From Escherichia coli O127:H6 str. E2348/69 (lineage in GTDB: Bacteria > Pseudomonadota > Gammaproteobacteria > Enterobacterales > Enterobacteriaceae), in assembly GCF_000026545.1 (NCBI RefSeq), contig NC_011601.1: DNA of 64,000 nt. One strand, 5' to 3'. Numbering within the stretch: the first letter of the stretch is position 1; each line of letters starts with the position of its first letter. Below are positions 22,181-22,308 of this stretch, piece by piece. The position numbers and the translations under genes were made by a program. The notes under the pieces are model-generated. The model worked only from the letters and a program-made list of their open reading frames with translations, did not search any database and was not told where the DNA came from.

Positions 22181-22281
22181 GAGAAAAGGGAAAGTGGGAG
22201 CTATGACACAGAGAGAAAAGGGAAAGTGGGAGCTATGACACAGAGAGAAAAGAAGAAGAGAAAAGAAGAAGAGAAAAGAAA
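22181..22281. repeat. Tandem direct repeats: 2 x 32 bp followed by 3 x 13 bp
   Basis: gagaaaagggaaagtgggagctatgacacaga occurs twice in tandem (22181-22244), then gagaaaagaagaa three times (the last copy degenerate). Confidence 0.85.
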
Positions 22282-22308
22282 ACGCCCCTGCCAGCAACTG
22301 ACAGGGGC
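22282..22308 (-). terminator. Rho-independent terminator of yfcZ
   Basis: Hairpin cgcccctg...caggggcg; on the minus strand it is followed by ttttcttttctc. Confidence 0.7.

Follow-up and report, generated by a model that had tools for sequence, protein, structure and literature searches.

A tandem 32-bp repeat upstream of fadI in Escherichia coli E2348/69 is a promoter polymorphism that probably duplicates a predicted CRP activator module of fadIJ

The 64-kb stretch of DNA analysed here (64,000 nucleotides, hereafter the window) is identical across 25 kb to Escherichia coli E2348/69, the prototype EPEC strain (O127:H6), and the repeats under study lie in it between yfcZ and fadI. Both genes are on the - strand: yfcZ (22327..22611) is the upstream gene and fadI (20791..22101, ATG at 22101) is the first gene of the fadIJ operon, which serves fatty-acid degradation by beta-oxidation. 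Read along that strand, yfcZ and its terminator come first, followed by a pyrimidine-rich spacer, a CRP site, the -35 element, the -10 element, a FadR operator and fadI. Transcription of yfcZ is ended by a hairpin (22282..22310, - strand) with a 13-bp stem and 9 G-C pairs, then a T-rich run (tail UUUUCUUUUCUC on the transcribed strand), and its folding energy of -25.8 kcal/mol stands well apart from that of shuffled sequences (z = -6.5). A G+C-rich hairpin and a U-rich tract shortly after the stop codon are the marks of an intrinsic terminator, and here the U-rich tail extends into the 13-bp array described below. An earlier first-pass annotation, made from the letters alone, had located tandem repeats in the fadI-yfcZ intergenic region beside a yfcZ terminator hairpin; both the location and the hairpin hold. 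A scan of positions 21000-24000 against Rfam at E <= 1 gave no match. As a separate observation, the hairpin looks flipped among lineages: against the K-12/E2348 hairpin, those of O157 and E. whittamii show only 2-4 differences when flipped to the reverse complement and 5-7 when compared directly.

The repeats form two arrays. Tandem Repeats Finder reports a 32-bp unit, GAGAAAAGGGAAAGTGGGAGCTATGACACAGA, over 22181-22252 (2.2 copies, 100% identity), and a 13-bp unit over 22244-22280 (2.8 copies, 100% identity). Parsed exactly, the 32-bp array consists of two units, both assigned to the - strand. The proximal, native unit (22181..22212) is the sole copy in K-12 and nearly all other E. coli, and carries the CRP site together with a 14-bp spacer towards the -35 element; the distal, duplicated unit (22213..22244) is 100% identical to it. 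On the fadI (-) strand the unit reads TCTGTGTCATAGCTCCCACTTTCCCTTTTCTC. The two tandem copies that had been described at 22181-22244 are thus identical throughout, and chance cannot account for so exact a repeat of 32 bp. The count of three 13-bp copies stands only in part: two are full (GAGAAAAGAAGAA; 22245-22257 and 22258-22270), whereas the third, GAGAAAAGAAAAC (22271-22283), is partial and diverged and runs into the A-run of the yfcZ terminator. This 13-bp array (22245..22283, - strand) sits within a 41-nt all-purine tract (22242-22282), which is the sole purine/pyrimidine run of at least 20 nt in the window.

The promoter of fadIJ was laid out from a mapped start site. In the supplement to Kim et al. 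2012 (PMC3415461), a fadI TSS is given at position 2458531 of NC_000913 (- strand, 3 reads, 5'UTR of 40), preceded by ...TTGGCTAAATGTAAAAAAATGGTTAAGACTATGATCA; transferred by sequence, this falls on the A at 22141 (- strand, 40-nt 5'UTR), a position resting on 3 reads in K-12. The supplements of Adams 2021, consulted as a confirmation of the TSS, make no mention of fadI or yfcZ. Relative to 22141, the -35 element TTGGCT (22172..22177, - strand) occupies -36..-31 and is conserved across Enterobacteriaceae, and the -10 element AAGACT (22148..22153, - strand) occupies -12..-7. An alternative -10, TATGAT, which would put the TSS near 22136 and the CRP site at -66.5, was rejected: it is unconserved, other genera having TGTTAT or TGTGAT, and the mapped TSS fits AAGACT. 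The FadR operator, ATCAGGTCAGACCACTT (22128..22144, - strand; -3..+14), fits the consensus aaCTGGTCnGACC(T/A)Gtt given in PMC9329746, and its position agrees with the overlap between operator and fadIJ start site described in a review. All 13-bp units lie at -104..-142, upstream of every mapped promoter element. The -35/-10 spacer (22155-22171, AAATGTAAAAAAATGGTTAAG) is almost invariant over ~70 species and has TGTAA and GGTTA 11 bp apart, a pair which we take to resemble the ArcA direct-repeat motif; repression of fadIJ by ArcA is described in a review. A PdhR box has been reported for fadIJ (cAgcGGTaaaACCtgac; PMC7660256) and lies at 22081-22097, in the first codons of fadI and outside the repeats.

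The motif GGGAG..ATGACACA in the 32-bp unit, which the first-pass annotation took for an RBS followed by a start codon, is instead the reverse complement of TGTGTCATAGCTCCCA, the core of the published, predicted fadI CRP-cAMP 22-mer. This core (TGTGT-CATAGC-TCCCA; 22210..22195, - strand, in the native unit) resembles the consensus TGTGA-N6-TCACA, matching it at 8/10 positions and the full consensus at 13/22, which marks it as a moderate predicted CRP site; chance alone would yield the loose CRP pattern 2.4 times in 64 kb. The native site (22192..22213, - strand; 22-mer AAGTGGGAGCTATGACACAGAG on the + strand) has its centre at 22202.5, that is at -61.5 from the TSS at 22141. Class I CRP sites are centred near -61.5, the canonical position, or at -71.5, -82.5 or -92.5, and the predicted native site falls on the first of these. 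The predicted duplicated site (22224..22245, - strand), an identical 22-mer, has its centre at -93.5, ~32 bp farther upstream and on the same helical face, as in tandem-CRP promoters.

Work in K-12 bears on the same site. Table S2 of Li et al. 2019 (PMC6390033) gives AAGTGGGAGCTATGACACAGAG as a fadI CRP site predicted at -112..-91 from the ATG; this 22-mer is exactly window 22192-22213 and recurs unchanged at 22224-22245. The same study assayed promoter fragments for Crp-cAMP binding by EMSA and records binding for both fadI and fadJ in its tables ('Yes', 'This work'); the site was predicted in silico, and the EMSA concerns the whole promoter fragment at 300-1200 nM CRP. The study also reports that fadIJ expression changes during carbon limitation. 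Elsewhere in the window, the pattern scan picked up a near-perfect CRP-type palindrome, TGTGATGGTGATCACA, at 58195-58210.

For a comparison across species, yfcZ-fadI loci were taken from 80 species-representative Enterobacteriaceae genomes, of which 73 loci could be anchored; the intergenic length is typically 160-185 bp. The FadR core AGGTC.GACC is found downstream of the -35 element in 73/80 species loci, at a constant distance from it in 70/73. The CRP-like core TGTG-N7-TC.CA is kept in 70/73 anchored loci and lies exactly 17 bp from TTGGCT in 69 of these 70, the intervening bases being variable, so that both the site and its phasing to the core promoter are conserved as in a class I promoter. 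No second CRP-like core within 260 bp and no tandem repeat in the yfcZ-fadI spacer were found in any of the 73 species loci. Because a single core is conserved with fixed spacing and no second core occurs in the species loci, one phase-locked CRP site is the ancestral as well as the general state, and this single phase-locked site across species in turn supports the assignment of the CRP site and of the TSS.

Within E. coli, the duplication was traced with a 42-nt junction query, GGAGCTATGACACAGAGAGAAAAGGGAAAGTGGGAGCTATGA, that spans two 32-bp units and to which single-copy genomes offer no 28-nt exact seed. The junction was present in 3/5426 complete genomes, all E2348/69 or derivatives: E2348/69 (CP059840.2), 'E2348/69 variety 2' (LT827011.1) and an engineered derivative of variety 2 (LT903847.1). 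A search for relatives with a prophage-containing 25-kb query gave a high-identity match over most of its length only in three E2348/69 records, and a search of metagenome contigs for two CRP cores 6-36 bp apart gave 0 matches. A search of the literature on E2348 and fadI found no description of the duplicated allele. The surrounding segment has features of its own: window 10001-35000 is matched end to end at 100% only in the three E2348/69 records, contains phage-like genes (baseplate J/gp47 family) less than 25 kb from the fad locus, and is variable among E. coli.

Copy number of the 13-bp unit was assessed in spread samples of 40 and 60 genomes and in a list of the 60 best matches. By span length, two alleles are common in both spread samples, the K-12-type (one 32-bp unit, one full 13-mer, 306-bp span) and a haplotype of ~305 bp that has no 13-bp repeat and is found in O157, Nissle 1917 and other strains; nearly all of the 60 genomes of the larger sample carry one or the other. 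Two full 13-mers (319 bp) occur in at least 59 genomes, and five in one genome, CFE299, among the matches listed. Full copies of the 13-bp unit thus number 0, 1, 2 or 5 among E. coli, and those of the 32-bp unit 1 or 2. Spans of 298, 304, 305 and 307 bp reflect changes in the T-run of the fadI 5'UTR and not in the repeats, and from the CRP site to the FadR operator the inspected E. coli alleles differ by a few point substitutions only. When the repeats are collapsed, the intergenic sequences of E2348/69 (2,2), MS20653 (1,1), PAR (1,2) and CFE299 (1,5), given as numbers of 32-bp and full 13-bp units, are identical, and copy number is therefore the only difference on that background. These are the properties of a variable-number tandem repeat, a reading that the first-pass annotation had put forward together with a comparison across strains as its check; that comparison, now run, finds copy number varying on otherwise identical intergenic sequence. 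Independently of the repeats, the run TTTATTTATTTTTTT in the fadI 5'UTR (22112-22127) has T6, T7 or T8, and strain 2A has a 9-bp deletion.

How the arrays arose is suggested by their edges. Every repeat unit starts with GAGAAAAG (CTTTTCTC on the - strand). The window has this 8-mer eight times, five of them in the array (at 22181, 22213, 22245, 22258 and 22271). In the K-12-type allele the 8-mers are 32 and 13 bp apart, exactly the lengths of the duplications seen. Since all units begin with GAGAAAAG, slippage at microhomology would explain both arrays. The likely cause of the 32-bp duplication would be slipped-strand mispairing or unequal exchange between the 8-mers that bracket the unit, and the same 8-mer may also seed the 13-bp expansions between the terminator U-tract and the CRP site. 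From the K-12-type state, the E2348/69 allele would need two events, +13 and +32, and the (1,2) intermediate exists in strain PAR. The O157-type haplotype has no full middle 8-mer, and the absence of expansions in the inspected O157-type alleles fits this loss.

The 32-bp tandem repeat is a promoter polymorphism, neither a gene nor a small protein, and its neighbour is a 13-bp spacer repeat of low variability. We consider it likely (probability about 0.65) that it is a duplicated CRP activator module of the fadIJ promoter, predicted to raise CRP-dependent fadIJ expression. The module would consist of the CRP core TGTGTCATAGCTCCCA and the 14 bp before the -35 region, and its duplication would keep the native site at -61.5 and at its old distance from the core promoter, and add an identical site at -93.5, about three helical turns (32 bp) farther upstream. 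Both copies would bind CRP, the distal dimer would contact a second RNA polymerase alpha C-terminal domain via activating region 1, and cAMP-dependent transcription of fadIJ would be raised, probably fewfold by analogy with the promoter CC(-93.5)CC(-61.5), with FadR repression at -3..+14 staying intact. The copy number of the 13-bp unit is probably without regulatory effect and would merely move the terminator away.

The closest known system is synthetic. In the account that Lee and Busby 2012 (PMC3445967) give of Tebbutt et al. 2002, CRP-dependent activity is higher from CC(-93.5)CC(-61.5) than from CC(-61.5). In the same account the upstream CRP depends on activating region 1 and on the alpha C-terminal domain (intact versus defective region, 381% expression), and an upstream CRP at -122.5 is inhibitory. 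CRP can repress at some upstream positions, so the effect depends on exact geometry. E2348/69 reproduces the -61.5/-93.5 geometry with the native module untouched, which leads us to predict, by analogy, a stronger cAMP-CRP activation of fadIJ in this strain, still gated by FadR. In both promoters a weak sigma-70 core is preceded by two CRP sites, predicted or engineered, whose centres at -61.5 and -93.5 are separated by 32 bp, but the sites of E2348/69 are natural, non-consensus (8/10 in the core) and derived from a spontaneous duplication, and the promoter is FadR-repressed.

Natural promoters with two class I CRP sites exist, for example acs P2. Activation at acs P2 involves more than one CRP dimer bound upstream, as predicted here for E2348/69; the acs P2-type sites are diverged, species-fixed and at other spacings, whereas E2348/69 has a perfect strain-private duplicate. 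The E2348/69 promoter would add a new natural case to the known tandem-CRP class I promoters, though not a surprising one. Compared with the single-site fadIJ promoter of K-12, which is FadR-repressed (reviewed in PMC9329746), it shares the core promoter, the FadR operator, the proximal CRP site and the spacing, and differs in having its CRP module twice, in identical copies, and one 13-bp unit more, which together place the terminator 45 bp farther away.

A stronger version of this proposal, which we advance only tentatively and regard as doubtful, is that a spontaneous 32-bp duplication, mediated by the microhomology, turned a single-site class I promoter into a tandem -61.5/-93.5 one that raises fadIJ at high cAMP, the CTTTTCTC-seeded tract being a hotspot for such events. 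If true, the hotspot would let activator-site copy number, and hence promoter strength, evolve in one step, and the allele would be a natural counterpart of the synthetic promoters of the Busby laboratory that might be adaptive in the gut.

Four other explanations were weighed against the duplicated activator module. The one that deserves most attention holds that the 32- and 13-bp changes are neutral replication accidents with no effect on fadIJ expression. We think it rather unlikely, while acknowledging what speaks for it: the duplication is private to one strain lineage (3/5426), which a recent neutral accident fits equally well, tandem CRP cores are absent from the scanned metagenome contigs, the CRP site is only moderate, and the 13-bp alleles are mostly fixed within lineages and vary in the least conserved part of the spacer. 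However, the duplicated segment is no arbitrary stretch of spacer: leaving aside core promoter and FadR operator, its motif is the only one to keep both sequence and spacing over ~70 species, and the copy falls at -93.5, an activating position in the synthetic promoters. Could the locus, at the other extreme, be phase-variable, with frequent gain and loss of units tuning or switching fadIJ or yfcZ? Contingency loci of Haemophilus and Neisseria have promoter-proximal variable-number repeats, and the array is like them in that tandem repeats near a promoter vary in copy number between strains, here on identical flanks and with a slippage-prone 41-nt all-purine run. Unlike these loci, it has long units (13 and 32 bp) in few copies (only 1 to 5 full ones), and its 13-bp units lie outside, and upstream of, every mapped promoter element; almost all genomes of the 60-genome spread sample have the 1- or 0-copy allele. 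Because the three E2348/69-derived assemblies are identical, the engineered derivative included, with no sign of high-frequency switching among them, and because alleles follow lineages, phase variation is not indicated and we judge it very unlikely.

The two remaining explanations concern whether the array is noncoding and whether it is real. The first-pass annotation had suggested a duplicated translation initiation region, with GGGAG as a Shine-Dalgarno sequence and ATGAC as the start, or a small protein on the + strand. A 50-aa + strand ORF does exist (22178-22330), and PGAP calls a 44-aa hypothetical protein over the expanded array in CFE299, but nearly everything else makes this reading highly improbable. 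GGGAG is only 2 nt from the ATG, too close for a Shine-Dalgarno sequence; the ATG lies within a CRP half-site and is unconserved outside Escherichia, Citrobacter and Salmonella loci, most other genera having TTTAG or TTTGG in place of CATAG, with loss of the ATG. Nor is a reading frame kept among alleles: the periods, 32 and 13, are not multiples of 3, so each change in copy number shifts the frame and the product differs per allele (from the ATG of the last 32-bp unit, 31 aa in E2348/69 and ~17 aa in K-12, the ATG of the first E2348/69 unit opening only ~11 codons). The product would be low-complexity, rich in Lys/Glu/Arg, and the ORF would cross the yfcZ terminator antisense, without an Rfam match and without a + strand promoter-like site, none of which was found near the array. 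A further, 83-aa ORF across the array had already been considered probably not real, and rightly so, since PGAP has no such ORF in the inspected E2348/69, K-12 and O157 records. As to reality, assemblies can collapse or expand tandem repeats, but the identical allele (2x32, 2x13) is present in CP059840.2, LT827011.1 and LT903847.1 from different submitters, and the 64-bp array is much shorter than a sequencing read. This agreement of three E2348/69-derived assemblies from two submitter sets makes an assembly artefact, which had been named as a possible refutation of the repeat, extremely improbable.

The duplicated activator module would matter chiefly if its second site is active. The E2348/69 and K-12-type alleles would then be a natural pair differing by one clean duplication, on which the origin and the action of tandem activator sites could be tested in a real promoter, and regulation of fadIJ in a much-used EPEC reference strain may not be the same as in K-12. 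Apart from that possible activity, this is an ordinary intergenic slippage polymorphism, and the repeat locus is only a weak strain-typing marker. The analysis also removes a false small-ORF lead and explains the spurious CFE299 entry: WP_281501462.1, the 44-aa 'hypothetical protein' that PGAP calls at 454-588 (+) of the CFE299 locus, spans the expanded 13-bp array and is almost certainly an annotation artefact, a low-complexity product of repeat expansion.

Two further variants were seen at the locus. In NZ_CP069980.1 (FDAARGOS_1291), the purine tract that separates the CRP site of fadI from the terminator of yfcZ is interrupted, at the equivalent of ~22220-22283, by an IS200C element with an annotated tnpA; the intergenic region is thereby lengthened to ~900 bp and the promoter parted from the terminator. 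Among genomes with the 319-bp allele, MS8324 and no fewer than 55 others have a conserved base of the FadR operator half-site changed, from GACC to GACT (- strand), and a SNP within the N6 spacer of their CRP site, at positions equivalent to window 22131 and 22201. This MS8324-type allele includes MCJCHV-1, which we take to be an ST1193 strain; the changed half-site might make FadR repression of fadIJ weaker in this successful clinical clone.
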